NCBI GenBank assembly: GCA_021650915.1
Contig: CP091279.1
Location: forward strand, 900,001-932,000
DNA: 32,000 bases
Direction of reading: 5' to 3'
DNA from: Candidatus Brocadia sp.
Lineage (GTDB): Bacteria; Planctomycetota; Brocadiia; Brocadiales; Brocadiaceae
The position numbers were made by a program, and so were the translations under genes. The number at the start of each line of letters is the position of its first letter. Positions within the stretch are counted from its first letter, which is position 1. Below, piece by piece: positions 2,488-20,667 of the stretch. The notes under the pieces were generated by a model. It did not search any database. It had not been told where the DNA came from and was given only the letters and a program-made list of their open reading frames with translations.

Positions 2488-2544
2488 AAAAACAAAAAAG
2501 CCTTACTGCAAAAATGTTTTATAAACATCTTCGGCAGTAAGGCT
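2488..2544 (-). terminator. Rho-independent terminator-like hairpin about 20 nt upstream of the LamG start codon
   Basis: 11-bp perfect stem AGCCTTACTGC (2499-2509) / GCAGTAAGGCT (2534-2544) with an inner ATGTTT/AAACAT stem. On the minus strand it is followed by TTTTTTGTTTTT (2488-2498). Confidence 0.55.
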
Positions 2545-2562
2545 GTCTTTTCATCAGATGTA

Positions 2563-2582
2563 GAGGCGTATTGCAATACGCC
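2563..2582. repeat. 20-bp perfect palindrome AGGCGTATTGCAATACGCCT
   Basis: Read directly; the reverse complement of the first 10 nt equals the last 10 nt. Confidence 0.9.
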
Positions 2583-2689
2583 TTTACGAAAGACCCTTTT
2601 CTTTGCGTCCCCTGATCACTCAGGGTTTGCCCTTATCGTGTTGTATCTTTTCCTACGGAATTGTTTGCGTGAATGGTTAGAATTGCAGG

Positions 2690-4432: not shown

Positions 4433-4505
4433 GCCCGCGTAGCTCAATTGGCGGAGCACGTCATTCGTAATGATGAGGTTGTCGGTTCGACTCCGATCGC
4501 GGGCT
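4433..4505 (+). tRNA. tRNA-Thr (anticodon CGU)
   Basis: Cloverleaf folded by hand. Acceptor GCCCGCG/CGCGGGC; D stem GCTC/GAGC; anticodon stem CGTCA/TGATG with loop TTCGTAA (anticodon CGT); T stem GTCGG/CCGAT with loop TTCGACT; discriminator T; CCA not encoded. Confidence 0.9.
4468..4505 (+). repeat. attL core (38-bp direct repeat, the 3' half of tRNA-Thr)
   Basis: TAATGATGAGGTTGTCGGTTCGACTCCGATCGCGGGCT is identical at 4468-4505 and 20630-20667. Confidence 0.85.
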
Positions 4506-4522
4506 CTTATTTTACAAGGGTT

Positions 4523-5578
4523 TCAAGCCTGTAAGACATTTTTGTTACCCCCGACTGTAGTCAAAACGTAGTCAACTTTTTCCAAAACCTCAATTCCTTT
4601 CCTTAAAGACTCCGGACAATGATGCGCATAACGCTGTGTCATGTGAATATCGCAATGCCCCAGCAGCTTTGATATTTTATAAAGGTCAATTCCTCTTTGT
4701 GCTAATCGTGTTGCGAAGGTATGTCTCAGGTCATGGAAACGAAAGTTTTGTATGCCTGCCTTTTCGTTGACAACGTTAAACGACTTGATAAGGTTTGCAC
4801 GATCAATCTTGGTCATGGCACTGCTGGGAAAAACGAAATCACATTTTAGACTCCTGACCTTCGTTTTCTCCATTAAAATACCAAGGGCAATCTGGTTTAA
4901 TGGAATTGTCCTAGGTTTACCGTTCTTTGTTTCCTGGATAATTATTGTCTTGCGAAAAAGGTCAGCCCTGTCCCATGTAAGCGAAAGCAGTTCGTCTTGA
5001 CGCAACCCGGTATGTAAGGCAAAAACAATTATATCCCTTAGCCATTACGGAGCATTTTCCAGTTGTCTCTTTTCCTCATCTTCTGATAACCAGCGGTCTC
5101 TTTGATTGTTCTCCCTTTCTTTGGGTATCTTCAAGCAAGGGTTTTCCTTTGTCCATTCCCATTGTTTTACCGCCAAACTAAAGGCTTTTTGAAGCATTGC
5201 CAGTTCCTTATTTATCGTTGCTGGTTTCTTGCCCTGATTTATCCTTGATACCTTGTAATCGTTTATTACTTTCGGTGTTATCACCGTCAATTTTGAATCA
5301 CCAAAGAATGATAAAAGATGTTTTGCAGATGTTGTATAACTCTCTTGCATATTCCTGGAAACCTTTGGCGCATGTTCTTTCATAAACCTGTCTGCCATTT
5401 CCCGGAAGGTCTTCTCCGTTCCCTCATACCGGTCAAAGTACTTGCCTTCAATCAGCTCCGTTTTCAATTTAGCTTCAATAGTCTCAGCAAGTTTTTTATT
5501 ATCCGTTTCAAGGCTTCTTTGGATCTTCTTGCCATTATACCGGATGCATGTCCACCAAATTCTGTCACGCTTATACAT
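4523..5578 (-). pseudogene. Tyrosine integrase interrupted by a single in-frame TAA (5045-5047)
   Basis: The two track ORFs (4523-5005 and 5045-5626) are in one frame: ..EEKRQLENAP*WLRDIIVFALHTGLRQDELLSL.. Catalytic motifs: TGLRQDE, HDLRHTFATRL, LLGHCD, QRYAH. Likely start MYKRDRIWW at 5578, behind GGAGGGG. Confidence 0.85.
4553..4576 (+). repeat. Candidate arm-type recombinase-binding repeat (partner at 20462-20485)
   Basis: GACTGTAGTCAAAACGTAGTCAAC versus GACTGTAGTCAAATTGTAGTCAAC: 22/24 identical, same orientation. Each contains two GTAGTCAA units. Confidence 0.45.
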
Positions 5579-5622
5579 ATTCCCCTCCTTTCCCGTGACC
5601 GGATGTGTCTGCATGACCGCTA

Positions 5623-5862
5623 TCAAGCATTATAACCATTTCCGCGAATCTCTCCAATGATCTTATTGGCCGTTCTTTCGCATTGCTGGGTATCGCGTTT
5701 GTTGGCAGCCATTATTTGATCTATTTCTTTCAAGTCAAAAAGGACACGGCGTCTATATTTGATTGATGGTACCTTACCCTGGCTTGCCCATTCGTAGAGT
5801 GTTTTAACTGGCAATGAGGTATATACTGAAAGCTCTTTGATGCTTATATATCTTTTTTCCAT
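5623..5862 (-). CDS. Excisionase/AlpA-type helix-turn-helix DNA-binding protein
   Basis: 79 aa. ISIKELSVYTSLPVKTLYEWASQGKVPSIKYRRRVLFDLKEIDQIM matches the excisionase-family HTH pattern. It lies directly upstream of the integrase. Confidence 0.65.
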   Translation of the reverse strand: MEKRYISIKELSVYTSLPVKTLYEWASQGKVPSIKYRRRVLFDLKEIDQIMAANKRDTQQCERTANKIIGEIRGNGYNA

Positions 5863-5964: not shown

Positions 5965-6249
5965 TTACCCGACATTTGTCGCCTTCTCGCGTCTGTGTTC
6001 TCTAATGATCTGACGTACCCAAGCCGATGTGACGCCATATTTCCCGGCAAGCGCTCCATAATTACCACCCTTAAATTCTTCGATGATCTTCCGCTTTTTT
6101 ACCCTGGCCAGGCAAATATCCAACTTTGGCAAATAGAATTGTTCGCCGCCGAATTCTTTCCCAAGCTTTATGGCATTCTCAATGCCTATTACCTTAGCAA
6201 TTTGTTGATAGTAGGCAGGCAGATCATTCGGACGGATATCATTTTCCAT
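5965..6249 (-). CDS. Mor-like (phage Mu middle-operon regulator family) HTH transcription activator
   Basis: 94 aa. GGEQFYLPKLD..RKIIEEFKGGNYGALAGKYGVTSAWVRQII resembles the Mor family pattern (iYiPk...R...I...F.G.N...LA.kYgls...i..Ii), recalled from memory. Confidence 0.45.
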   Translation of the reverse strand: MENDIRPNDLPAYYQQIAKVIGIENAIKLGKEFGGEQFYLPKLDICLARVKKRKIIEEFKGGNYGALAGKYGVTSAWVRQIIREHRREKATNVG

Positions 6250-7254: not shown

Positions 7255-7911
7255 TCAACCAACATGTGAGTCGTGACCGATCTTTGTCCTTTCTTCAATT
7301 GCCCACCGTAATTTCCTGAGCGCCTTTACTTCAATCTGACGTACCCTTTCTTTTCCCATATTAATTTTCAAACCCACTTCATCCAGGGGAAGATGTTTCC
7401 GGAATCTCAGGTTAATAACCGTTTTTTCCCTCTCACTGAGAATATCCAATAAGCTGCATACCTAGCTATGAAAAGCCGCCTCATCGCTCTGGGGTTCAGT
7501 CGATTCAAGGATCTCCCCTTGTGTCATTTCTGATTCATGCCCGTAGGCCAGTTCATCAAGGGAATCATGCTCACATTGTTTATGATCCTTAATGGCCTTT
7601 ATCACACCTTGCACAATGCTGTTGCCTGCGTAGGTCAGGAATCGAAACCCTTTGTCAGGATCAAAGGTCTTTGCAGCCTTAATAAGCCCCAGGCATCCTT
7701 CGGAAATCATATCCATCAGGGGAAGTCCATGAGACCAGTATTGAAAAACCACCTTAATGACAAATCTCATGTTTGATTCGACAAGTCTGTTTCTTGCTGC
7801 TTCATCACCCATTAGTGATTGCCTGGCAATGGCTAATTCCTCATTGTTGGTAAGTATTGGAATTCTTCCCACATCCTTTTCAAACATCTGCATAAGTTTT
7901 TTTTCTTGCAT
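7255..7911 (-). pseudogene. Sigma-70 family factor interrupted by one in-frame TAG (7462-7464)
   Basis: Region 2: RLVESNMRFVIKVV..DMISEGCLGLIKAAKTFDPDKGFRFLTYA. Then ..EAAFHS*VCSLLDILSEREK.. in the same frame. Region 4: LSEREKTVINLRF..ERVRQIEVKALRKLR. ATG at 7911 behind GGGAGGG. Confidence 0.8.
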
Positions 7912-7920
7912 CCACCCTCC

Positions 7921-7951
7921 CTTTGTGATATAAAATGCCCTTATCACAAAG
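7921..7951. promoter_or_regulatory. Inverted repeat just upstream of the sigma-factor start (possible operator)
   Basis: CTTTGTGATA (7921-7930), 11 nt, TATCACAAAG (7942-7951). Confidence 0.25.
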
Positions 7952-7972
7952 GAAAGTGGCATTTCTTCTCCT

Positions 7973-8004
7973 AAAGCCGTGCACTTGCCAGGGTGCGCGG
8001 CTTT
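7973..8004 (-). other. Hairpin overlapping the stop codon of the 425-aa recombinase (weak terminator candidate)
   Basis: AAAGCCGTGCAC (7973-7984) versus GTGCGCGGCTTT (7993-8004): 11/12 complementary with an 8-nt loop. Only a short T-run follows on the minus strand. Confidence 0.3.
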
Positions 8005-9280
8005 ATTTATTTAGCGGATTACGCATGCCCGGATGATCATCATAACTTTGTGCTGAATGAACGTAAATCATCGTAGTATTGATATCCTGGTGTCCTGCCA
8101 GTTTCTGGATATCCTGTATTGGTACACCTTCATGGGCAAGCATCGTAAAGGCCGTATGCCGCAACGAATGAGCGCTTAATACCTCACCATCCCTTTCAAT
8201 CTTTGCCTTTTTGATGTATCTTTTCACGATGTTTTCCACAGACTTCACGGAAAGCGCCCCTGGCAGCCTGTCCCTTCTTATTACCAGTTTGTGATCCACG
8301 CGGTCATAGATAAAGGGTAAAAATACCGGCAACTCTCCGGTTATCTTTATCCCGTAGCCCTTTACAATATCCATCCAGGCATCAAACGCCTGTAATGCCT
8401 TTCCGTTTAGGATAATAGCCGTCTTTGGTCTATTCTGAAATCTCCCCTTCCTGTCCACAATCCAGACCTTTTGTTGTCCCTTTACCCGGTCGTGTTCAAG
8501 GTGTTTATGCCTGAGTCCCGCCGTTTCATTTGCCCGGAGGCCGTACACCAGCATCAAGGCAAGGATTGCATAATCTCGCCTGCCAATCTCTGTTTTTCGA
8601 TCTGGTTGATTCAATAACCGTTGTGCCTCCGACACAGAAAGAACGGTATAGTACCCCTTATCCTTCTTCGGGAAGATTAAAGTCAGTTCCTTAAATACGA
8701 TAGGATTCCTGAACTTCCTGTTTTCCCTCTCGATATACTTAAAGAACCGGTTTAGGGATATAAACCGATTCCAGATCGTGGTATCCCGGTAAGAATTCTC
8801 ACGGAGATAGTCCCGGTATGCAAGGATATCCTGTTTTGTTATCTCGCATAAATCCTTGTTTATCCAGGCGAAGAATAGCTTGATAAGGTTCTCATAGCTC
8901 TTTTTGATATTCGGTGTGTTCTGGGTAGCAAGGAATTTGTCAAGACAAACCAACAAATCTTCGTCTTTTACGCCGGTATGTGTCTTAAACTCCTTCAGGG
9001 TGATAATAGGGTTCCGGAACGCTCCGGATGCCTCCAAATGCTTAAAAAAGCCATTGAGTATGGAAAACTTCCTTTTCGTGGTCTTTGGTGAATGTTCCCA
9101 GGAAAGTCTTTCCTGATATGCATGGAGAACTTCTTTCGTGATATCAGAAATTCCCTTTAAATTCTTAAAATCAAAAAACTGCTGTATCTCAGACCGGTAC
9201 ACCCTTTGGCTGCTACCGTTAACCTTTTTCAAATATTGGTTGAAAAGCCTTTTGCCACTGTCTGTATCAAGAAATGACAT
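8003..9280 (-). CDS. Tyrosine recombinase/integrase with extended (duplicated SAM-like) N-terminal region
   Basis: 425 aa. The C-terminal catalytic domain has GLRANE, HSLRHTAFTML, LAGHQD, TTMIYVH. The start is coupled to the upstream gene (TAA-c-ATG at 9284-9278). Confidence 0.85.
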   Translation of the reverse strand: MSFLDTDSGKRLFNQYLKKVNGSSQRVYRSEIQQFFDFKNLKGISDITKEVLHAYQERLSWEHSPKTTKRKFSILNGFFKHLEASGAFRNPIITLKEFKTHTGVKDEDLLVCLDKFLATQNTPNIKKSYENLIKLFFAWINKDLCEITKQDILAYRDYLRENSYRDTTIWNRFISLNRFFKYIERENRKFRNPIVFKELTLIFPKKDKGYYTVLSVSEAQRLLNQPDRKTEIGRRDYAILALMLVYGLRANETAGLRHKHLEHDRVKGQQKVWIVDRKGRFQNRPKTAIILNGKALQAFDAWMDIVKGYGIKITGELPVFLPFIYDRVDHKLVIRRDRLPGALSVKSVENIVKRYIKKAKIERDGEVLSAHSLRHTAFTMLAHEGVPIQDIQKLAGHQDINTTMIYVHSAQSYDDHPGMRNPLNK

Positions 9281-9281
9281 G

Positions 9282-9746
9282 TTAAATCCCTGTAACTAAT
9301 TTCCCTTTTGCGCGTTTTAAGACAGAAATTAAAACCCCCGCCTCATTACCGCCTAACTTAGCAAGGGTATCCTTGTTAAATATCTTGCGGACAAAGTTCA
9401 TAAGATGCTCATCATCCCAGCCCGCTTCTTTTTTAAGATTCTCTATAAGGGATAGTTGGTCTGGTGTTGCCAGGGGTACAAAACGGCCAATTACTTTAGA
9501 ACCCTTTTTTGGTGCCAGAATAGTCCCCCTTACGAAAGGGGGATTCAGGGGGTTGTTTGCTGGAACTCGTACCTTACCCTCAAGGATATCAATCAACTCT
9601 ATACCCCGGCTCTTGGTAAGCTCCTTAGTAGATTCCTGACCAGATACCCACCGAACGAGGTCCCTGACCTGTTCTTCCGCCATCCCTATCTCATGGGCTT
9701 TTGTCCAAATCTTCTTTTTTTGCGCCTGCGTGATCCCTTTTACCAT
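9282..9746 (-). CDS. GemA/Mu gp16-like (DUF1018-like) protein carrying an in-frame repeat insertion
   Basis: 154 aa with two similar halves: ITQAQKKKIWTKAHEIGMAEEQVRDLVRWVSGQESTKELTKSRGIELIDIL and ATPDQLSLIENLKKEAGWDDEHLMNFVRKIF..LGGNEAGVLISVL. The family call is from memory of the pattern. Confidence 0.4.
   Translation of the reverse strand: MVKGITQAQKKKIWTKAHEIGMAEEQVRDLVRWVSGQESTKELTKSRGIELIDILEGKVRVPANNPLNPPFVRGTILAPKKGSKVIGRFVPLATPDQLSLIENLKKEAGWDDEHLMNFVRKIFNKDTLAKLGGNEAGVLISVLKRAKGKLVTGI
9523..9554. repeat. G/C-hairpin repeat element, copy inside the GemA-like CDS
   Basis: GTCCCCCT-TACGAA-AGGGGGATTCAGGGGGTT encodes NNPLNPPFVRGT on the minus strand. Same family as 14803-14831 and 29958-29989. 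Confidence 0.75.
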
Positions 9747-9795
9747 AAAAAATACCTAAGAAATGTGAAATGTTCCTATAGGAAAAATATCAAAA

Positions 9796-9975
9796 ACGTG
9801 TTGCAACGTGTTGTAACCCTTGTAAATACTAGAAAACTACGTGTTGTAATACGTGTTGCATTGCAACACGTTGCAACACGTTTACAACACGTTACAACAC
9901 GTTCACAACACGTTTAAAAACCCGAAAACCATTGATTCTCTGGGCAAACAACACGTGCAACACGTTGCAACACGT
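9796..9975. repeat. Iteron array: 12 copies of CAACACGT phased at 9-11 bp (candidate replication origin or operator array)
   Basis: ACGTGTTG starts at 9796, 9806, 9839 and 9851. CAACACGT starts at 9864, 9874, 9885, 9895, 9906, 9949, 9958 and 9968. The orientation switch forms a palindrome with 10-bp arms at 9851-9871. Confidence 0.7.
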
Positions 9976-9994
9976 TATTTTCAAAGACCCTATA

Positions 9995-12601
9995 TTATTT
10001 GTTTGTAAATTCTGTAATTACATTCCAGGGTATAATTACAAGTCGCTTCCCATCTCTAACGCAGGTAAATTTATCATCTTCCCGTTTGATCCACTCTTTT
10101 TCAGACCATAACCTAAGAACTACCCTTTCAGAGAAATTTTCTTCTCTTAGGGCATTCGCAAGCTCACTTTTGTAAATTCCCAGATATTCAAACTCTTTCC
10201 ACTTGCCAAAAGACTTCGTAGTATTCCCTTTAAAAGAGGCCTCATTAGCGTTTGCCCAGGACAAGATATATTCCATTGCCCTGGTACCGACATCCACATC
10301 GTTCAAAGACTCCCTGATCACGTTTTCAAATACCCGGTCAATGGATTCCCTTGCAGCCACAGGATCACCAACCCCTAAAATTTCATAAACAAGATCGGCT
10401 GCCAACTTGATCACCGCAAAATACTGAGAAATCCTATCGCCTACCTCATTATTTGCCTCTAGAGATAATGTCCTTTTGTATGTTTCATAAGCAATCTGTA
10501 GCTTGGCCGTCTTATCCGTGCTTTCCAAGATAGGCAGGATGCCTTCTACAAATTTAGCCCCGGCATGTCCGTAATTTTTCCTTAACCCCGTTTTAAGGTC
10601 ATTGATAAAATCCGATCCTGCGTTGGGAAATGGTGATCCATATAACGATATCAATCTTGCTACGCCCCCGCCGTCATTAGAGGATTCTGATATAGGACGT
10701 TCGCCGGTACTAAAAACTATTGTATGCCATGATGAAGTGTGGCGGACACCTACGATATTAGCGCGACCTTTAGCACAGCCATTTATAAGCATGTAGATAT
10801 TATTTGATAAAGTAAGTTTACTTACCGTCTGTGAATCATCTGGGAATATGGGCATGTCACAAAAGAAGGTGGCAATCCGTTCTAAAAATGTTCGTGTGGA
10901 GTCCCAGCCGAAGATCAAACCGCCTGCCTCCCTGTGTGGGTTCCCCCATACGCTGGCTGCCAGTTCAAGAACCGTTGTCTTACCAACAGAGGTATTGCCC
11001 CAAAAGTCGACGATGAAGTTCGGCGCTTTTAGTATCCTGAGAAGCGGCGCTGCAAACGATGCATAAAAGGCAAGGTTGGCATAAGGATATTTCAAGGCAT
11101 GTCCTATACACTCCCTCCATTTCGCATATGTTCCCTCTGGCTTTACTGCCTTTACAAACCGCTCAAACCCTGGTTCCGTGAAAAACTCAACGGATACCTC
11201 CTTGTCGCCCTGGACGGCCTTTTTACCCACCATCTTTTCAAGGATAAACACCAGCTTGTCCCCGACAGACTTAAAACCAAAACTTTTGGAAGTGAATGAT
11301 TTTGGGATAAACGACATATTGAACGCCTCGAAGGCTGCCAGATATTCAATCATCTTCCCGCTGTTTCTGCTATTTACCGGCAAGCCGTGATTTGCAAGTT
11401 CAATAATCTTTTTCGCATCAGAGATTAACAGTTTAGATATCCAAATCTTTTTCCACTTATGATCCCTTTTGAAAGTGATCTCAACGTCCTCAATGCCAAA
11501 ATCGATGTCTAGCGCCCGCCCGGTAATGAAAAGAGGGGTATAGAATGCTGGCTTTTGGATTTGCTTGTTTTCATAGTAGATTATCTGTTCAACACGGTCA
11601 TGGTAAACCTTGAATCCCGCTGGTTCAATAAATCTTACCCCATCAATCTCCTGTAAATCGCAAGCAATCTCTTTCGCGCTATAAAGGAATCCCTGAAAAT
11701 CTTCCCTTCTTTTCTTCAGGGCAACAAAGAAATCCGTTACGTCCTTTCGTTCTTTTGAGTCCATGTATGACGGCCATTGAATTACCTTCACACTCTTGGC
11801 CACACCCTTAAGATGATTAGCAACATTCGCAGCTCCCTGTTTTCCAGGTTCGTCATTGTCATATGCAATGATCACGTTGAGATTAGTAAAGAGTGAATTC
11901 CATTCCCGCTTCCAGGTGTTAGCCCCGCCGGTGCCTGATACAGCCGGGAAACCCAGTTGATTGAGAAGCAGCGCCTTAAATTCACCCTCAGCAATGATAA
12001 TAAAGGGGAGATCCTCCTGGATAATGTTAGCAGGGTACAAAGATACTTTAGCTCCTTTGCTTTGCTGTCCCTTATGCTCCTTAAGTGTCCACTTACCCGG
12101 CTCTGTCTCTATCGGGATAACGTAACGCTCGTTCTGATAACCGGTGCGGTACTTTTCTGTCGTCTCCCTGGATAGACCATATTTATCCTGGAAGGTCTTT
12201 AATACCGCCTCGTTTTTTAGCAATTGGTTATGGATGAGTTTTACCTGGTCAAAGGTGAGATGCGCGGATTTTGGATTCCCGCTTCTAGGTTTCGGTTTCT
12301 CTTCTGAATCTGATGCAGGGGAGGAGTCTATCCCTTCCTCAGCCAAAATCTTCTTAATAGCGCCTTTCTTATCCAGCCCATACCGCAGCTGAAGAAATTT
12401 AATTACGCCTCCTTTCGCACCACACCCGAAGCAATGAAAACCACCCCGTTCCAAGTTAACTTTAAGGGAGGGAGTCTTTTCGTGATGGAAAACACATAGA
12501 CATTCAACCTCCGTTTTCCCATTCGCTTCAAACCCCGGTATATGTCTTGAATAAAAACTTCTGTAATCCATCCTGCGTAATACATCTGTAGTATTATCCA
12601 T
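9995..12601 (-). CDS. Bifunctional DNA primase / P-loop helicase (P4-alpha / DUF927-type replicase)
   Basis: CHC2 zinc finger: CLCVFHHEKTPSLKV..FHCFGCGAKGG. Toprim-like: IIAEGEFKALLL..AYDNDEPGKQGA. Walker A: GNTSVGKTT. ATG at 12601 behind AGAGG; the track starts at TTG 12607. Confidence 0.85.
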   Translation of the reverse strand: MDNTTDVLRRMDYRSFYSRHIPGFEANGKTEVECLCVFHHEKTPSLKVNLERGGFHCFGCGAKGGVIKFLQLRYGLDKKGAIKKILAEEGIDSSPASDSEEKPKPRSGNPKSAHLTFDQVKLIHNQLLKNEAVLKTFQDKYGLSRETTEKYRTGYQNERYVIPIETEPGKWTLKEHKGQQSKGAKVSLYPANIIQEDLPFIIIAEGEFKALLLNQLGFPAVSGTGGANTWKREWNSLFTNLNVIIAYDNDEPGKQGAANVANHLKGVAKSVKVIQWPSYMDSKERKDVTDFFVALKKRREDFQGFLYSAKEIACDLQEIDGVRFIEPAGFKVYHDRVEQIIYYENKQIQKPAFYTPLFITGRALDIDFGIEDVEITFKRDHKWKKIWISKLLISDAKKIIELANHGLPVNSRNSGKMIEYLAAFEAFNMSFIPKSFTSKSFGFKSVGDKLVFILEKMVGKKAVQGDKEVSVEFFTEPGFERFVKAVKPEGTYAKWRECIGHALKYPYANLAFYASFAAPLLRILKAPNFIVDFWGNTSVGKTTVLELAASVWGNPHREAGGLIFGWDSTRTFLERIATFFCDMPIFPDDSQTVSKLTLSNNIYMLINGCAKGRANIVGVRHTSSWHTIVFSTGERPISESSNDGGGVARLISLYGSPFPNAGSDFINDLKTGLRKNYGHAGAKFVEGILPILESTDKTAKLQIAYETYKRTLSLEANNEVGDRISQYFAVIKLAADLVYEILGVGDPVAARESIDRVFENVIRESLNDVDVGTRAMEYILSWANANEASFKGNTTKSFGKWKEFEYLGIYKSELANALREENFSERVVLRLWSEKEWIKREDDKFTCVRDGKRLVIIPWNVITEFTNK

Positions 12602-12622
12602 TTTCAACCTCTAAAAACTCCT

Positions 12623-12694
12623 AAAACAAAAAAGCCAGGATCATGAGAATATCCTACAGGAATTACCCTGTAAGAACTTCTCCTGACCCTGGCT
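12623..12694 (-). terminator. Long-stem Rho-independent terminator
   Basis: On the minus strand, AGCCAGG...CCTGGCT closes an extended imperfect stem-loop and is followed by TTTTTTGTTTT (plus-strand A-run 12623-12633). Confidence 0.6.
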
Positions 12695-12762
12695 TATTTA
12701 CTCTTATTCGTACTGCTGAGTTTGGTTGCCTTATTAGATCTTGGCTTACTCGCCATTAATAG

Positions 12763-12985
12763 CTATTGCTGAACAGCTATTTTTGGCCGCATAACAAATT
12801 GACCACACCTATTACACTTAATATATTCCTCGTCTTTACTATACGACACCATTCCAGAAGTTTTTGAAAACCAATATCCCTCCTCATCATGGACAACAAT
12901 ACTATGATTACATCTGGGATTAGGACACCTTCCATCTGATTTTATGACTCCCGCAACTTCTACGTTCTTAATCCTTTTTTTTCAT
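12763..12985 (-). CDS. Zinc-ribbon protein (73 aa) reachable only after loss of one A in an A8 tract
   Basis: AAGGAGGT (13000-12993), 7 nt, ATG (12985-12983), A8 (12982-12975). As written it reads MKKKD*. The +1 frame stays open for 72 codons: KKRIKNVEVAGVIKSDGRCPNPRCNHS...KCNRCGQFVMRPKIAVQQ*, with two Cys pairs. Confidence 0.4.
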
Positions 12986-13655
12986 GCTTATTACCTCCTT
13001 TCGCTGATTTTAGATTTTTTTGACTCTTCTTTGATTTTTCCCATGACCTATCAGGCATTTTAGAACGTAAAAAAATCTTACCACGTCGCCACACCTTGCC
13101 CTCATTCAAATACCCCACATAATCCTCGTCATCGAGGCCGAAGTCACAAAACACATTAGGAAGACAACCTTCTATGTGGTTGCTCACATCATATATCAAA
13201 TCCACCACTTCCTCCCTTTCAGGGAATTTGCCAAGGATTGATTCTAGTTCATTTATAACCACTTTAGTTAAATGTTCAGTCACATCATAAGTTAATTTCA
13301 AACGCCCCTTATCCCTGTCTGACACATAAGGGAGTGCTTTTAAAAAGTTAATTTCCATTTCTTCGGATGCAAAACTCCCTTTCATCTCCTTGAAAAATGA
13401 CAACCATTCATCAAAAGACATATTTTTCTGCCGAATCTGTTCGTAAGTAAAACCTTCTTTGTGCAGTTTCATAATTTGTTTAATGTCATTAATAACCCTG
13501 TCATCATACTCAGATACAGATCCCTTACCCTTGCCCAACCCATAACGAGCAGGCTTTTTGATAAGTCCTAAAGAAGCAAAGTAGGTGAGCATCTTATCGC
13601 TTACCCCTATATGTTCCTCTTTCAGCTTTTTAAGCAATTCTTTTTTAGTCATCAT
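12960..13655 (-). CDS. Putative MerR-like HTH DNA-binding protein with a basic C-terminal tail
   Basis: 231 aa. The N-terminus TKKELLKKL..GVSDKMLTYFASLGLIKKPAR..YDDRVINDIKQIMKLHKEGFTYEQI resembles the MerR-type HTH pattern. The C-terminal part is not recognised. Confidence 0.45.
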   Translation of the reverse strand: MMTKKELLKKLKEEHIGVSDKMLTYFASLGLIKKPARYGLGKGKGSVSEYDDRVINDIKQIMKLHKEGFTYEQIRQKNMSFDEWLSFFKEMKGSFASEEMEINFLKALPYVSDRDKGRLKLTYDVTEHLTKVVINELESILGKFPEREEVVDLIYDVSNHIEGCLPNVFCDFGLDDEDYVGYLNEGKVWRRGKIFLRSKMPDRSWEKSKKSQKNLKSAKGGNKHEKKGLRT

Positions 13656-13705
13656 CTACCCATCCTCTTAAAGGCTACCTTTGTTAGTTAGTAATTGCTT
13701 TCTTT

Positions 13706-13761
13706 ATTATTAGACATCTAATAATTATTTAGCATTCTATAATAAGAACTTTATTTGTCAA
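13706..13761 (-). promoter_or_regulatory. Promoter plus palindromic operator upstream of the MerR-like gene
   Basis: Minus strand TTGACA (13761-13756), 16 nt, TAGAAT (13739-13734), followed by the 20-bp palindrome ATTATTAGA-CA-TCTAATAAT (13706-13725). Confidence 0.4.
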
Positions 13762-13791
13762 CAAAAAAATCAAAAACATTTTCAACCTCTC

Positions 13792-14109
13792 CTACCCGTC
13801 TTCCTTCACCTTCCCCGCAAACTCTTCGTATTGCTCCACATGTTTTTCAATGATTCTCTCTTGATGCTCAAGGTAAAGCTCTATGATCTGTGATAATCCA
13901 AGCCTCAAAGCCTCTGCTTCATAATTCCTCTCTTCGCAGCCAGGTGTGGGATATTGCGTAGCAAAATCAGTCAAATCAGAATCTTGCAGTAAGACAGCAA
14001 ACGCCCTGAGTGCGTAATGATGACTCAAAAGTTTATCCTGGAGATCTGTAATACATCCCGGATCAAAACTCCCCTCTTTTTTCTTAGCCTCGTTCTTATT
14101 GTTTAACAT
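13792..14109 (-). CDS. Hypothetical protein (105 aa)
   Basis: ORF-track frame. It overlaps the upstream ORF by 14 nt, which suggests translational coupling. I recognise no motif. Confidence 0.45.
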   Translation of the reverse strand: MLNNKNEAKKKEGSFDPGCITDLQDKLLSHHYALRAFAVLLQDSDLTDFATQYPTPGCEERNYEAEALRLGLSQIIELYLEHQERIIEKHVEQYEEFAGKVKEDG

Positions 14110-14365
14110 GGTTATTTCCCTCCCTCTCTGCTTTAACGCTGTTGCAGATTATCTTCTGACATTCCTCGACCGTGTCCTGGACGAAACCCAAAAATAAATA
14201 AAAGCCGTAATAGCCATGACTGGAAAAGTTATATTCATCTACAGGCGGCGTAGGCTGTGCGGTGAGATCTTGAACAAACTGTATTAATGCAGACACTCGA
14301 TCCATCGTATCAGGTACATCTTCTAACTTCTTTGGCGGTTCCCATACTTTCTTTAACATACGCAT
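14096..14365 (-). CDS. Hypothetical protein (89 aa)
   Basis: ORF-track frame with a GGAGGA RBS upstream of ATG 14365. I recognise no motif. Confidence 0.45.
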   Translation of the reverse strand: MRMLKKVWEPPKKLEDVPDTMDRVSALIQFVQDLTAQPTPPVDEYNFSSHGYYGFYLFLGFVQDTVEECQKIICNSVKAEREGNNHVKQ

Positions 14366-14509
14366 ATCCTCCTTCTTTAAGTTTAAAGTTTCGAGTTTGT
14401 ACCCCTGTGGCTAAATCTTTTCTTTTCTCTGTGCCCCTCTGTGTAATCTGTGAAATCTGTGGTTCCCTGTTTTTTCTCTGCGTCCTCCGCGTCCTCTGCG
14501 GTGAACCTT

Positions 14510-15115
14510 TTACAAAGCAAACTGTAACCTTGCAATGGCATCCATCTTCTTTTCATCCGATGTGTGCAGATACTTCTCTGTCGTGCGTATATGACTATGC
14601 CCTAAAAGCTCCTGGACGGTCTTCAGGTCAACCCCCTTATCCAGGAGTGTAGTAGCAAAGGTATGCCTGGTGGTATGTGGAGTAATCCTTTTGGCAATTA
14701 AGGCAACCTTCTTCACCCGCCGTAAGAGGCAATCCACCGCCTTATGGGTAAGCGGCCTCACGTCACAATTCCCGTGCTCCCCCAAGGTGTAAAATAAAAA
14801 TTGTCCCCCTTCGGAGGGGGTTAGGGGGAGGAGCGCCTTCCGATAATCCAGGACGGCCTCCATCACGTCCCTATCCAACGCAATGCGCCTGCGTTTCTCC
14901 CCCTTGCCCATCACATCAACCACCGGTTGATTCCGGTACGTGGTAATATCTGCAACGCTAAGACTGCACACCTCTGCCTTTCTCAACCCAGTGGAGAACA
15001 TGAGGAGTAATAGGGCATAATCCCGCTTACCCTGTAACGTCCTTCTGTCCGGCACCCGGAGTGCCGCGCAAATCTCATCCTCAGTCAAAAACTCTGACAC
15101 CCTTTTTGGCTTCAT
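14510..15115 (-). CDS. Short tyrosine recombinase (XerC/D-like catalytic domain only)
   Basis: 201 aa. Motifs: GLRKAEV, GKGEKRRRI, PHTTRHTFATTL, LLGHSH, EKYLH. RBS: GAAGGAGGTGAAACGATC-ATG. Confidence 0.8.
   Translation of the reverse strand: MKPKRVSEFLTEDEICAALRVPDRRTLQGKRDYALLLLMFSTGLRKAEVCSLSVADITTYRNQPVVDVMGKGEKRRRIALDRDVMEAVLDYRKALLPLTPSEGGQFLFYTLGEHGNCDVRPLTHKAVDCLLRRVKKVALIAKRITPHTTRHTFATTLLDKGVDLKTVQELLGHSHIRTTEKYLHTSDEKKMDAIARLQFAL
14803..14831. repeat. G/C-hairpin repeat element, copy inside the short recombinase CDS
   Basis: GTCCCCCT-TCGG-AGGGGGTTAGGGGGAGG encodes LLPLTPSEGGQF on the minus strand. Confidence 0.75.
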
Positions 15116-15639: not shown

Positions 15640-17358
15640 GTAACTATTCAGCGTAATATCGCCCCCTATCGTTACGAGCTGGCAAAATCAGGCAATTTGC
15701 CGCGAAATACCATCCGTAATGCCTGACTTAAATTTACCCCTTGTTTTCGACAAGTCGAGAGATAACTACGGATGAGGCAGAAGATCTTCGCTCCGTCCAG
15801 AGAACGAAAACAGCCCGATATCTTCTGCTGAACCTTCGTCATCCTGATATCGTTTTCGGCCAGGTTATTCGTGAAGGGGACGTTTTTATTGTCCATAAAT
15901 CTGAGCACATCACCCTCATACTCCCGTAATCGTTCCAGGAGATTCCGTGCTTTTGTCCTTTTTACCCGCCCTCTTTTCCCCTTACGGTTCGTTTCATCAG
16001 GGGGCGGGCTTTCAGCTTCTGCGTTTTGCAATATCCCCCGGTACCTTTGCCGGTATTTCTCAGACTCGCCGTTTTCCAACAAACCCCCCGCATCCTTTAC
16101 CGCACGGTTTATCTCTTCGAGCAGGGCTTTCATCTCTTTCGCCCACGGTTGCTTCTTATCCTCTTCCCACACCCCCTCCAATTCCCTCAGGTGGTGTGCA
16201 TTACAGAGCGCATGTGTACAGCGGGTGTAGGTGTAATACGCCTTCAAATGGTCGTGACAAAGAATCCCCCGAAACTGGGGCAGTATCCCGATACTATCCA
16301 TCGCTTCCGTCCCACGTCTTTCGTGAGGGAAAAAGTGTGTCCACAAACTATTGGATGCACTATGCAGCCAATACCTGTCTCCGTTCTTGTTGATGCTCGT
16401 TTCATCTGCCTGCAATACCTCTGATTTGACAAGTTCTTCCTTGGTTTTCCCCTCGAAGGCTTCCAGAGATTCGTAGGCATCCTTGTTAAAGTTGTAAAGA
16501 GAGCCTTCGCTCAGCGGTATCCCCATCTGCTCCTCAAAATACTCCTGGATCCTCTTATAGGGTATCAATTGATACTGTGACATATATACTGCGTGCGCTT
16601 TCAAATCCGGCCCATACTGCACTGCCTTTGTCACCCCTTCCGGAAATGACGCTACAAACCTACTTCCCTCCGCATCCTCAACTATCTCTGCCCGATACTC
16701 CGTTACCACCCTTGAAATCTTCATATCAAACACCTGACGCGACTCATAACCGATCAACCTGTATTTGCCGCTCGGATACTTCCTCCGGTCTACTTTTATT
16801 ACTTCCACCTTATCAGGATTGGCTACCTTTTTCAGCGTTACTCCATCATGACCCTCTTGCCCACCTGCCTTCCTCTCTCCTTTCGCCCTGCTCTTTCTCG
16901 TGCGATTCGGATCGCTTGCGGGCGGCTTACTACTGTTGCGACTGTTCCGGTTCAGACGTCCTACCAGCAGCGTTATCACTAACACCAACAACTCTATCAT
17001 TGACCTTATGGCAGGTGACAGACCTTTTTCCTCTGAAAGCAGCTTTTCTACTTTCCGCAGCGTTGCATCTATATCTATATTCTCTATCGTCAATGGATGG
17101 CACCGGTATTAATAGCCTGAAATCATCTCCTGCGGCTATTATACCACAGGCTTTTTCACCCATTTTTTTCACCCTCTACCGCCCTACAAAACTCTGTAAT
17201 TCTCTGGCCGAACATACCCCACACCTCTCTTTGCAAAAACCTCCGATGGGCTACAGTGGCATCCTCCACAGCCATTTATTCTACCAACCAATTCTACGGC
17301 CCCCTTTTCTCATGTTGACTGTCAACTAAATTCTAAAATATTTTCGCTGAATAGTTAC
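15640..17358 (-). mobile_element. IS66-family insertion sequence (single-ORF, ISBst12-like type), 1719 bp
   Basis: 14-bp perfect terminal inverted repeats: GTAACTATTCAGCG (15640-15653) and its reverse complement (17345-17358). They are flanked by the 8-bp direct duplication GCAGTATG (15632-15639 and 17359-17366). Confidence 0.9.
15672..17093 (-). CDS. IS66-family transposase
   Basis: 473 aa. Motifs I associate with IS66 TnpC: NSSKPPASDP, CNAHHLREL, PFTNNLAENDIRMTKVQQKISGCFRS..GAKIFC.IRSYLSTCRKQG. Confidence 0.9.
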   Translation of the reverse strand: MTIENIDIDATLRKVEKLLSEEKGLSPAIRSMIELLVLVITLLVGRLNRNSRNSSKPPASDPNRTRKSRAKGERKAGGQEGHDGVTLKKVANPDKVEVIKVDRRKYPSGKYRLIGYESRQVFDMKISRVVTEYRAEIVEDAEGSRFVASFPEGVTKAVQYGPDLKAHAVYMSQYQLIPYKRIQEYFEEQMGIPLSEGSLYNFNKDAYESLEAFEGKTKEELVKSEVLQADETSINKNGDRYWLHSASNSLWTHFFPHERRGTEAMDSIGILPQFRGILCHDHLKAYYTYTRCTHALCNAHHLRELEGVWEEDKKQPWAKEMKALLEEINRAVKDAGGLLENGESEKYRQRYRGILQNAEAESPPPDETNRKGKRGRVKRTKARNLLERLREYEGDVLRFMDNKNVPFTNNLAENDIRMTKVQQKISGCFRSLDGAKIFCLIRSYLSTCRKQGVNLSQALRMVFRGKLPDFASS

Positions 17359-20461: not shown

Positions 20462-20485
20462 GACTGTAGTCAAATTGTAGTCAAC
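20462..20485 (+). repeat. Candidate arm-type repeat (partner of 4553-4576)
   Basis: GACTGTAGTCAAATTGTAGTCAAC, about 145 bp inside attR. Confidence 0.45.
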
Positions 20486-20629
20486 TCCATCGAAATGGTT
20501 AGGAATCAACAGGAATAAGCAGGAAATAAATTTTTGTTGCAACTCGTCTAAAAACAACGTATTCTAGGCACAAAAGACACATTTCCGGCCACTTGTAAAA
20601 AATGCTAATAAATACAAAAAGGTCTTTCA

Positions 20630-20667
20630 TAATGATGAGGTTGTCGGTTCGACTCCGATCGCGGGCT
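20630..20667 (+). repeat. attR core (38-bp copy of the tRNA-Thr 3' half)
   Basis: Identical to 4468-4505. The 5' half of the tRNA is absent here. Confidence 0.85.

Follow-up and report, generated by a model that had tools for sequence, protein, structure and literature searches.

A probable iteron origin of replication beside the DUF927 primase-helicase gene of a tRNA-Thr-integrated element in Candidatus Brocadia

The stretch of DNA considered here, referred to as the window, comprises 32,000 nucleotides of a Candidatus Brocadia sp. genome (assembly GCA_021650915.1, contig CP091279.1, positions 900,001 to 932,000) and is numbered from its first letter. It carries an element of about 16.2 kb integrated at a tRNA-Thr gene. 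The element encodes a primase-helicase, Rep. Between the rep stop codon (9995-9997) and the next gene, which starts at 9746, lies a 248-bp gap (9747-9994) that contains 12 copies of the short repeat CAACACGT. Both genes, like all the genes neighbouring the array, are on the minus strand. The array is examined here as the probable origin of replication of the element and as the probable target of Rep. The parts of this rep-array module are as follows.

9995-12607, minus strand: rep, coding for an 870-residue protein that joins a DnaG-type primase (CHC2 zinc finger and Toprim) to a DUF927 AAA+ helicase and has an HTH_56 winged helix at its C-terminus
9998-10279, minus strand: C-terminal winged-helix domain of Rep (residues 777-870), the proposed reader of the iterons
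9976-10040, no strand: second AT-rich flank of low stability, 17-30% GC, overlapping the final rep codons
9949-9975, plus strand: rep-proximal iteron triad, CAACACGT at 9949, 9958 and 9968, 9-10 bp apart, the last copy 19 bp from the rep stop
9914-9948, no strand: spacer A, 35 bp, 37% GC, separating triad and central block by 43 bp start-to-start (about four helical turns)
9864-9913, plus strand: central block, with five direct iterons (9864, 9874, 9885, 9895, 9906) at alternating 10 and 11 bp, mean 10.5 bp
9851-9871, no strand: orientation switch, a perfect palindrome with 10-nt arms (9851-9860 and 9862-9871), 1 nt between them and 100% complementarity
9839-9858, minus strand: two inverted iterons (9839, 9851), 12 bp apart and opposed to the central block
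9814-9838, no strand: spacer B, 25 bp, 28% GC, 33 bp start-to-start, with sites of the same orientation on either side
9796-9813, minus strand: closing iteron pair (9796, 9806), 10 bp apart and nearest to the next gene
9747-9795, minus strand: AT/T-rich leader, 23-27% GC, reading TTTTTGATATTTTTCCTATAGGAACATTTCACATTTCTTAGGTATTTTTT in the gene direction

All 12 exact copies of CAACACGT lie inside 9796-9975 and none is found elsewhere in the window; shuffled sequences contained 0.55 copies on average and 3 at most, and none of 100 shuffles reached 12. Four copies are on the minus strand (9796, 9806, 9839, 9851) and eight on the plus strand (9864, 9874, 9885, 9895, 9906, 9949, 9958, 9968). Read in the gene direction, the array begins 19 bp past the rep stop codon with three copies spaced by 9-10 bp, followed by a 35-bp spacer, five copies spaced by 10 or 11 bp, two copies in flipped orientation, a 25-bp spacer and two final copies. 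The eight same-orientation sites, spacers counted in, display a vector strength of 0.95 at a period of 10.5 bp, a value also reached at the 99.9th percentile when the best period is sought for eight random sites. The two flanks of the array are AT-rich (23-27% GC over 9740-9799 and 17-27% over 9970-10019) and belong to the least stable 1-5% of the 25-bp duplexes of the window. Spacer A is not especially unstable in the same duplex-stability scan. An earlier note on this DNA had described the array from the letters alone. Each of its twelve positions is exact, and its account of same-face phasing, of the palindrome at 9851-9871, of the gap directly downstream of the replicase gene and of the AT-rich flanks was confirmed. 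Its general spacing of 9-11 bp applies within the blocks; it does not extend to the orientation switch (12-13 bp) or to the spacers (33 and 43 bp). Iterons with at most one mismatch are scattered elsewhere in the window at chance level, revealing neither a second cis site nor an operator at the rep promoter. No DnaA box, with at most one mismatch, occurs in 8241-14405, and an Rfam scan returned no family at the array.

The protein encoded next to the array is assigned, from its domains and closest relatives, to the DUF927 initiator-helicases of the type of SaPIbov1 Rep and Cch, with a C-terminal winged helix. Its Pfam domains are Zn_ribbon_DnaG, Toprim, DUF927 (PF06048, E=1.9e-43) and HTH_56 (PF18662, E=4.9e-17), and PHROGs classifies it as DNA primase/helicase. 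The closest relative of solved structure is the Rep protein of SaPIbov1, a Staphylococcus aureus pathogenicity island (SaPI), matched over residues 327-839 with E=1.5e-40 (PDB 8TCH, an entry described as 'initiation of replication protein with helicase activity'). The match to Cch (5DGK), the helicase of the staphylococcal cassette chromosome mec (SCCmec), is much weaker (E=3.8e-15). The C-terminal domain was modelled with AlphaFold2 as part of residues 528-870; the truncated ATPase is poor in this model (predicted local distance difference test, pLDDT, below 50) and only the C-terminal domain was used, which reaches a pLDDT of 88-96 and folds into a helix, two strands, two helices and a beta-hairpin. 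A Foldseek search with the Rep model placed 8TCH and 5DGK on top; the next matches were DNA-binding winged-helix proteins, among them TcpK in complex with oriT DNA. The predicted recognition helix, ERVVLRLWSE, is encoded at 10100-10129 and the wing hairpin CVRDGKRLVIIP at 10028-10063. The invariant columns of the Rep family alignment include the Walker A motif (GKT) and the primase metal-binding residues.

The Rep helicase of SaPIs doubles as the initiator of replication, and its C-terminal winged helix recognizes 6-12 short iterons situated immediately downstream of rep (PMC9371898; PMC7581432). The iterons are penta- or hexanucleotides and at least two of them, pointing in opposite directions, lie on each side of an AT-rich region near the centre of the origin (PMC9371898). 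Two hexamers are thought to load there (PMC9371898; PMC7581432). The work of Ubeda et al. (2007, 2012) on the SaPI origin is taken here as summarised in these two papers (PMC9371898, PMC7581432). SaPIbov1 Rep and Cch are both DUF927 proteins, and Cch2 binds, through its C-terminal domain, direct repeats located in the intergenic region that follows the helicase gene (PMC7581432).

The module in the window resembles that of SaPIbov1 in most respects. A homologous self-loading DUF927 helicase with a C-terminal winged helix is encoded together with a primase, 12 short iterons in both orientations (eight copies against four) lie just downstream of rep, the nearest at 19 bp from the stop, and the whole belongs to an integrative element with its own integrase. 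Several features differ: the primase is of the DnaG type and is fused N-terminally to the helicase, the units are 8 bp long instead of 5-6 bp, the opposed blocks abut, the AT-rich DNA is found in the 25-bp spacer and the outer flanks and not in a long centre, the spacers carry a conserved non-iteron motif, and the host is an anammox planctomycete and not a staphylococcus. With SCCmec Cch, the protein shares the DUF927 helicase and the HTH_56 domain, whose Pfam name derives from that system, as well as the integrative lifestyle of the element; the Cch2 origin, however, has only three 5-nt iterons and its primase is a polymerase-based pair, CCPol-MP. Neither a helper-phage-responsive repressor nor packaging or capsid-redirection genes were recognized among the element open reading frames (ORFs) scanned (20 with Pfam, 10 with PHROGs), and a search of IMG/VR returned two distant relatives only. 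On these grounds the replicon is described as SaPI-like, and the element is not presented as a phage-inducible chromosomal island (PICI).

More distant DUF927 replicons extend the comparison. In the annotated phage and plasmid collections, only relatives with 22-29% Rep identity were found, none of which has an annotated origin. Four of them (L046-L049) were inspected: plasmids pHD120017 of B. thuringiensis (17 kb) and pSJEF4-2-2 of Geobacillus (13 kb), a Streptomyces plasmid (16 kb) and the Faecalibacterium phage FP_Epona. The three plasmids are small and circular (13-17 kb) and come from Gram-positive bacteria. In 4/4, the helicase gene is directly followed by 10-20 iterons, a CHC2 or Toprim primase is fused or adjacent, and the iterons form blocks and tight 9-bp pairs in both orientations. 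Their order is block, spacer, pair, an AT-rich region of 85-110 bp, pair, spacer, block. The clade of the window uses the same building blocks, whereas its tight groups are outside and its blocks abut in the middle of the array.

Two other kinds of origin were considered and set aside. The alpha protein of the satellite phage P4 reportedly combines primase, helicase and a C-terminal domain reading octamer iterons (TGTTCACC) in one polypeptide, and P4 needs two separate cis regions, ori and crr, about 4.5 kb apart. The helicase and primase domains of alpha are of other families than those of Rep, and an alpha-type replicon was rejected: the Pfam hits of Rep are restricted to the DnaG-type zinc ribbon, Toprim and DUF927, and the window holds a single array. 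Classical iteron plasmids (pPS10 RepA, R6K pi, RK2 TrfA) have WH1-WH2 initiators, 17-22 bp iterons about 22 bp apart, DnaA boxes and recruit the host DnaB. The present array recalls them by the initiator sites beside rep, the AT-rich DNA nearby and the lineage-specific specificity; the class was nevertheless discarded, the initiator here being a primase-helicase and the units 8 bp long at 10.5 bp, with no DnaA box.

The array was then sought in relatives of the element, as the earlier note had suggested. The comparison set consists of 45 loci encoding Rep relatives (numbered L001 onwards), drawn from species-representative genomes and metagenomes. Their hosts are Ca. Kuenenia, Jettenia, Brocadia, Scalindua and other Brocadiaceae, together with metagenome-assembled genomes (MAGs) labelled Nitrospinia, Desulfobulbia, Omnitrophota and delta proteobacterium. 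In about 27 of the 45 loci, roughly 20 of which are distinct, an array follows the rep stop directly; Rep identity among them goes down to 32-33%. The place and the layout are those of the window, and the units are lineage-specific: about 18 different units of 7-8 nt occur in a common arrangement of two or three tight copies, a spacer, a block, a flipped block, a spacer and again two or three tight copies. The following units were identified.

ACGTGTTG: window, L016, L017
GGTGTAGT: L001, L002, L019
GTGGTAGT: L008
GTAGTAAC: L005, L022, L023
GTAGTGAC: L021
GTGGTTAC: L020
GTGGTGAC: L026
(C/G)(C/G)TGTGAG: L009
GCGGGGC: L011
AACGGATA: L027
ACCGGGTA: L029-L034
ACTGGGTT: L035, L038
CCTGTAAG: L036
CCTGTATG: L037
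AGGCGTAA: L042
GCGGTAAC: L043

Within the 14-kb loci, the array is usually the sole site with at least five copies of a 7-mer per 250 bp. Nearly all relatives have a counterpart of the rep-proximal triad, made of two or three closely set units, and in nearly all of them a closing pair or triplet with 9-10 bp spacing ends the array. A period of 10.5 bp was again the best when 16 loci were pooled, the vector strength averaging 0.83. The spacers vary by steps of about one helical turn: start-to-start distances are 43, 52-54 or 66-69 bp across spacer A, and across spacer B they are 32-33, 43-45, 54-55 or 66 bp. Spacer A is 35 bp long in most relatives and 44-62 bp in others; it is AT-rich in most lineages (11-34% GC) but not in the Brocadiaceae group of the window. 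Spacer B contains a non-iteron motif, TAGTATTTACAAGGGTTAC in the window when read in the gene direction, that recurs as CTTGATAAATAAGGGTT-like in relatives despite their different iterons and adjoins the last iteron pair in L001, L003, L006, L009, L020, L026 and L037. The spacer of the B. thuringiensis plasmid reads CTTGATATAAC, which is similar to this motif. Beside the last iteron pair, the T-run and the CTATAG part of the leader are also conserved in distant relatives, and they travel with the array in L004. The leader (9747-9795) may be a candidate unwinding region, an outward promoter or both.

Central-block copy number varies among otherwise near-identical elements, from seven in L016 to five in the window and three in L017. 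The differences are of 21-bp double units, and the outer groups and spacers are unchanged. Such variation speaks for slippage, and the array also folds strongly as a single strand (z=-7.1), a trivial result given its inverted iterons and one that any set of inverted repeats would give. That the array is merely a functionless product of slippage, made of tandem and inverted repeats, is nonetheless hardly credible: layout, 10.5-bp phase and position by rep were kept while the unit was replaced about 18 times, 12/12 copies are exact in the window, and nothing in Rfam matches the array.

Across the family, the C-terminal domain of Rep has a conserved FSERAVLRSWAEKGWIK-like helix; the loop and hairpin after it are hypervariable, in length as well as in sequence. 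Pairs of loci that differ in their unit are on average 25% identical in the wing and 54% identical in the helicase body. A correlation between unit distance and wing distance persists when helicase-body distance is controlled (partial r=0.36, p=0.0002), and the reverse partial correlation, with the body when the wing is controlled, is -0.03. Individual pairs illustrate this: L035 and L036 have different units despite 91% identity in the helicase body, whereas L036 and L037, only 61% identical in the body, share the unit, one base off, and the wing residues. In L020 and L026, the units are one base apart and the wings 80% identical (e.g. TCQRRK vs TCLRRK). In the L001 type, the counterpart of Rep residues 838-862 is REGGKFTCSRTVRIEEGVTKNRRLTLIPW. 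It is proposed that the specificity for ACGTGTTG/CAACACGT would sit just after the recognition helix, in the loop and the beta-hairpin wing.

Two loci lack an array after rep and have one elsewhere, whose unit is the one expected from the wing. In L004, the whole module, with a GGTGTAGT array, is inverted and located 5.2 kb upstream of rep; in L006, a GTAGTAA(A/G) array is found 5.6 kb upstream of rep. Directly downstream of rep, L006 has a 132-aa ORF (8729-9127) with weak likeness to the Rep C-terminal winged helix (pairwise E=0.003), which might code for a separate iteron-binding paralogue. In L040 (35% identity), the C-terminal tail differs, and neither a winged-helix domain nor a downstream array is present; this single case fits the pairing of the winged-helix domain with the array. 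The inheritance of the module points the same way. The sequence of the window is about 100% identical to that of L016/L017 over Rep residues 351-870, over the array and over the DNA beyond it, and 60-78% identical in the primase domain, with a recombination breakpoint against both L016 and L017 near 11560 (Rep residue ~350), at the boundary between primase and helicase. The helicase, the C-terminal domain and the origin were therefore inherited as one block.

Taken together, the type of Rep, the arrays of relatives, the tracking of the unit by the wing and the iterons of distant DUF927 replicons agree with the proposal of the earlier note that the array is a candidate origin beside the primase-helicase gene. 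In our estimate, the probability that it is the Rep-cognate iteron origin of the tRNA-Thr-integrated element, working in the manner of a SaPI origin, is about 78%. The same note had given equal standing to a cooperative operator for the GemA-like/integrase/sigma operon. The array indeed lies in the intergenic region just upstream of this operon, the conserved T-rich/CTATAG/TTTACA-like leader after the last pair could be a promoter, the element encodes several helix-turn-helix (HTH) proteins that could bind there (MerR-like, HTH_17, Mor-like, sigma-like), and the Rep sites of iteron plasmids often double as operators. The genes that follow the array nevertheless vary among relatives. In the window, as in L008, L009 and L019, a GemA-like gene comes next; L001 has another small ORF there, L003 a Dam-like methylase gene, L020 and L023 integrase genes and L036 genes on the opposite strand, and in L029 no ORF of at least 70 aa follows. 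Arrays of the same layout thus precede unrelated genes or none. Conversely, the GemA-integrase-sigma operon of L006 directly follows rep with no array in front, its array being the distant one described above. In L029-L038, Rep is the sole protein of the window to have a homologue. Since the downstream genes vary and the L006 operon is array-free, the array belongs with rep and not with this operon. The MerR-like, GemA-like, Mor-like and HTH_17 proteins and the integrases were each rejected as the iteron binder, being absent from many array-bearing loci. A scan of 9600-10100 for sigma-70 promoters and terminators gave one weak promoter-like hit over the ATG, plus the iteron hairpins, no more than in shuffled sequences, and 12-14 sites in a fixed bipartite layout exceed the needs of an operator. 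An array serving only as an operator for Rep or another regulator, with no role in replication, is accordingly disfavoured as the main function and judged improbable. A secondary regulatory effect of the two promoter-proximal sites on the downstream genes is possible.

A further alternative assigns the array to another protein, either as a parC/ParR-like centromere or as the arm-type sites of one of the three tyrosine recombinases of the element. Centromeres of the parC type resemble phased arrays of ~10-bp units in two groups, three integrase genes are present in the element, one of them only 500 bp away, and the whole module was inverted and moved in L004. No family of the ParA, ParM or ParR type was detected, however, in the 20 element ORFs scanned, and a centromere of this type was rejected for want of a partition operon among them. 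The attachment (att) sites are at the ends of the element, 5 and 11 kb from the array. In addition, the array stays with rep in L029-L038, which have no homologue of the window integrases, as well as in plasmids and a phage, and its unit tracks the Rep wing. This explanation is considered slightly less probable still than an operator.

The element that carries the module is bounded by two 46-nt direct repeats, from which its length of about 16.2 kb is deduced, and the same 46-mer is found at the end of a related element in L017, which is shorter between att and rep. Its main features, besides the rep-array module, are the following.

4460-4505, plus strand: attL, 3' half of tRNA-Thr(CGU) (gene 4433-4506)
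4523-5626: tRNA-adjacent integrase gene, split by an in-frame TAA at 5045-5047
5623-5862: HTH_17 excisionase-like gene
5965-6249: Mor-like gene
7255-7962: sigma-70-like gene, interrupted by an in-frame TAG at 7462-7464, with region 2 in 7462-7962 and region 4 in 7255-7449
8003-9280: integrase gene, after the GemA-like gene
9282-9746, minus strand: GemA-like gene, the first after the array, maybe transcribed from or through it
14510-15115: gene of the third tyrosine recombinase
15672-17093: IS66-family transposase gene, inserted in the element
20622-20667, plus strand: attR, second copy of the 46-nt tRNA 3' half (direct repeat, 96% identity)

The GemA-like and Mor-like proteins are regulators of the phage Mu type. 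Kuenenia, Jettenia and Brocadia genomes hold syntenic versions of the element, in which the order of the three tyrosine-recombinase genes is conserved, and internal rearrangement by these recombinases is conceivable (cf. the inversion of the module in L004). A second direct repeat of 34 nt, 82% identical, lies just inside each end (4553-4586 and 20462-20495) and might represent recombinase arm-type sites. In the relative L001, both the sigma-70-like gene and the tRNA-adjacent integrase gene are apparently uninterrupted. Outside the element, the host DNA contains a c-di-GMP-I-GGC riboswitch aptamer (2529-2640, minus strand; 61.4 bits, E=2.3e-12, above the Rfam gathering score), and a radical-SAM gene flanking the element is 89% identical to its counterpart in Ca. 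Brocadia sp. WS118.

The molecular model proposed for the array follows that of SaPIs. In the excised element, the C-terminal winged-helix domains of Rep would bind the 8-bp iterons, the 10.5-bp phasing keeping all sites of a given orientation on the same helical face. The opposed sets, i.e. the triad and the five direct copies on one hand and the two plus two inverted copies on the other hand, would then place two Rep hexamers in opposite orientations. Nearby DNA of low stability would melt, for which the two AT-rich flanks and the 25-bp spacer are the candidates, and the two hexamers would be loaded there as a double hexamer. The fused DnaG-type primase domain would finally prime the exposed strands for replication.

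Several observations weigh against the origin interpretation or against this mechanism. What is missing is a long AT-rich centre, which measures 85-110 bp in the relatives from plasmids and phage and is also described for SaPIs; easily melted DNA is limited to the 25-bp internal spacer and the outer flanks, and the 35-bp spacer has 37% GC. On no other point does the array depart so far from the SaPI description, and it is here that the mechanism is least certain. The in-frame stops in the sigma and integrase genes and the IS66 insertion indicate that the element may be decaying, and the origin of a partly decayed element may be out of use, although rep is intact and the 12 iterons are perfect. 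The cumulative GC-skew check advised by the earlier note revealed no turn at the array: the skew is negative throughout 5-17 kb and follows gene orientation, with no inflection at 9.8 kb, in a test that is uninformative for an integrated element of 16 kb. Moreover, the loci of the comparison set were fetched by rep, which is thus present in each of them by construction, and the co-variation test employs a coarse measure of unit distance on lineages that are related to each other.

The DUF927 clade of the window might use a rearranged, 'inside-out' origin, in which Rep and DNA would form a wrapped or looped complex with a conserved, possibly host, factor; occupancy of the closing pair by Rep could also be coupled to the expression of the GemA-integrase-sigma genes. 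The complex is suggested by the blocks that abut at the palindrome, the 9-bp pairs outside, the external position of the AT-rich DNA, the whole-turn spacers (33/43/54/66 bp) and the conserved motif. This arrangement is put forward as a tentative and rather unlikely possibility.

No paper was found in the literature on this family of elements, or on replicons or vectors, in anammox bacteria and the other hosts. SaPI-type origins being already known, what is new is most likely their occurrence in the anammox host group, and the present analysis leaves the current understanding of how such origins work unchanged. It points to a probable origin, and to the protein that probably reads it, in an undescribed family of integrative elements, spread among the anammox Brocadia, Jettenia, Kuenenia and Scalindua and MAGs labelled Nitrospinia, Desulfobulbia, Omnitrophota and delta proteobacterium. 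The ~18 natural pairs of wing and iteron constitute a data set on how the wing of a winged helix reads DNA in SaPI-type initiator-helicases, and the rep-array module could be the starting point of a replicating vector for these organisms.

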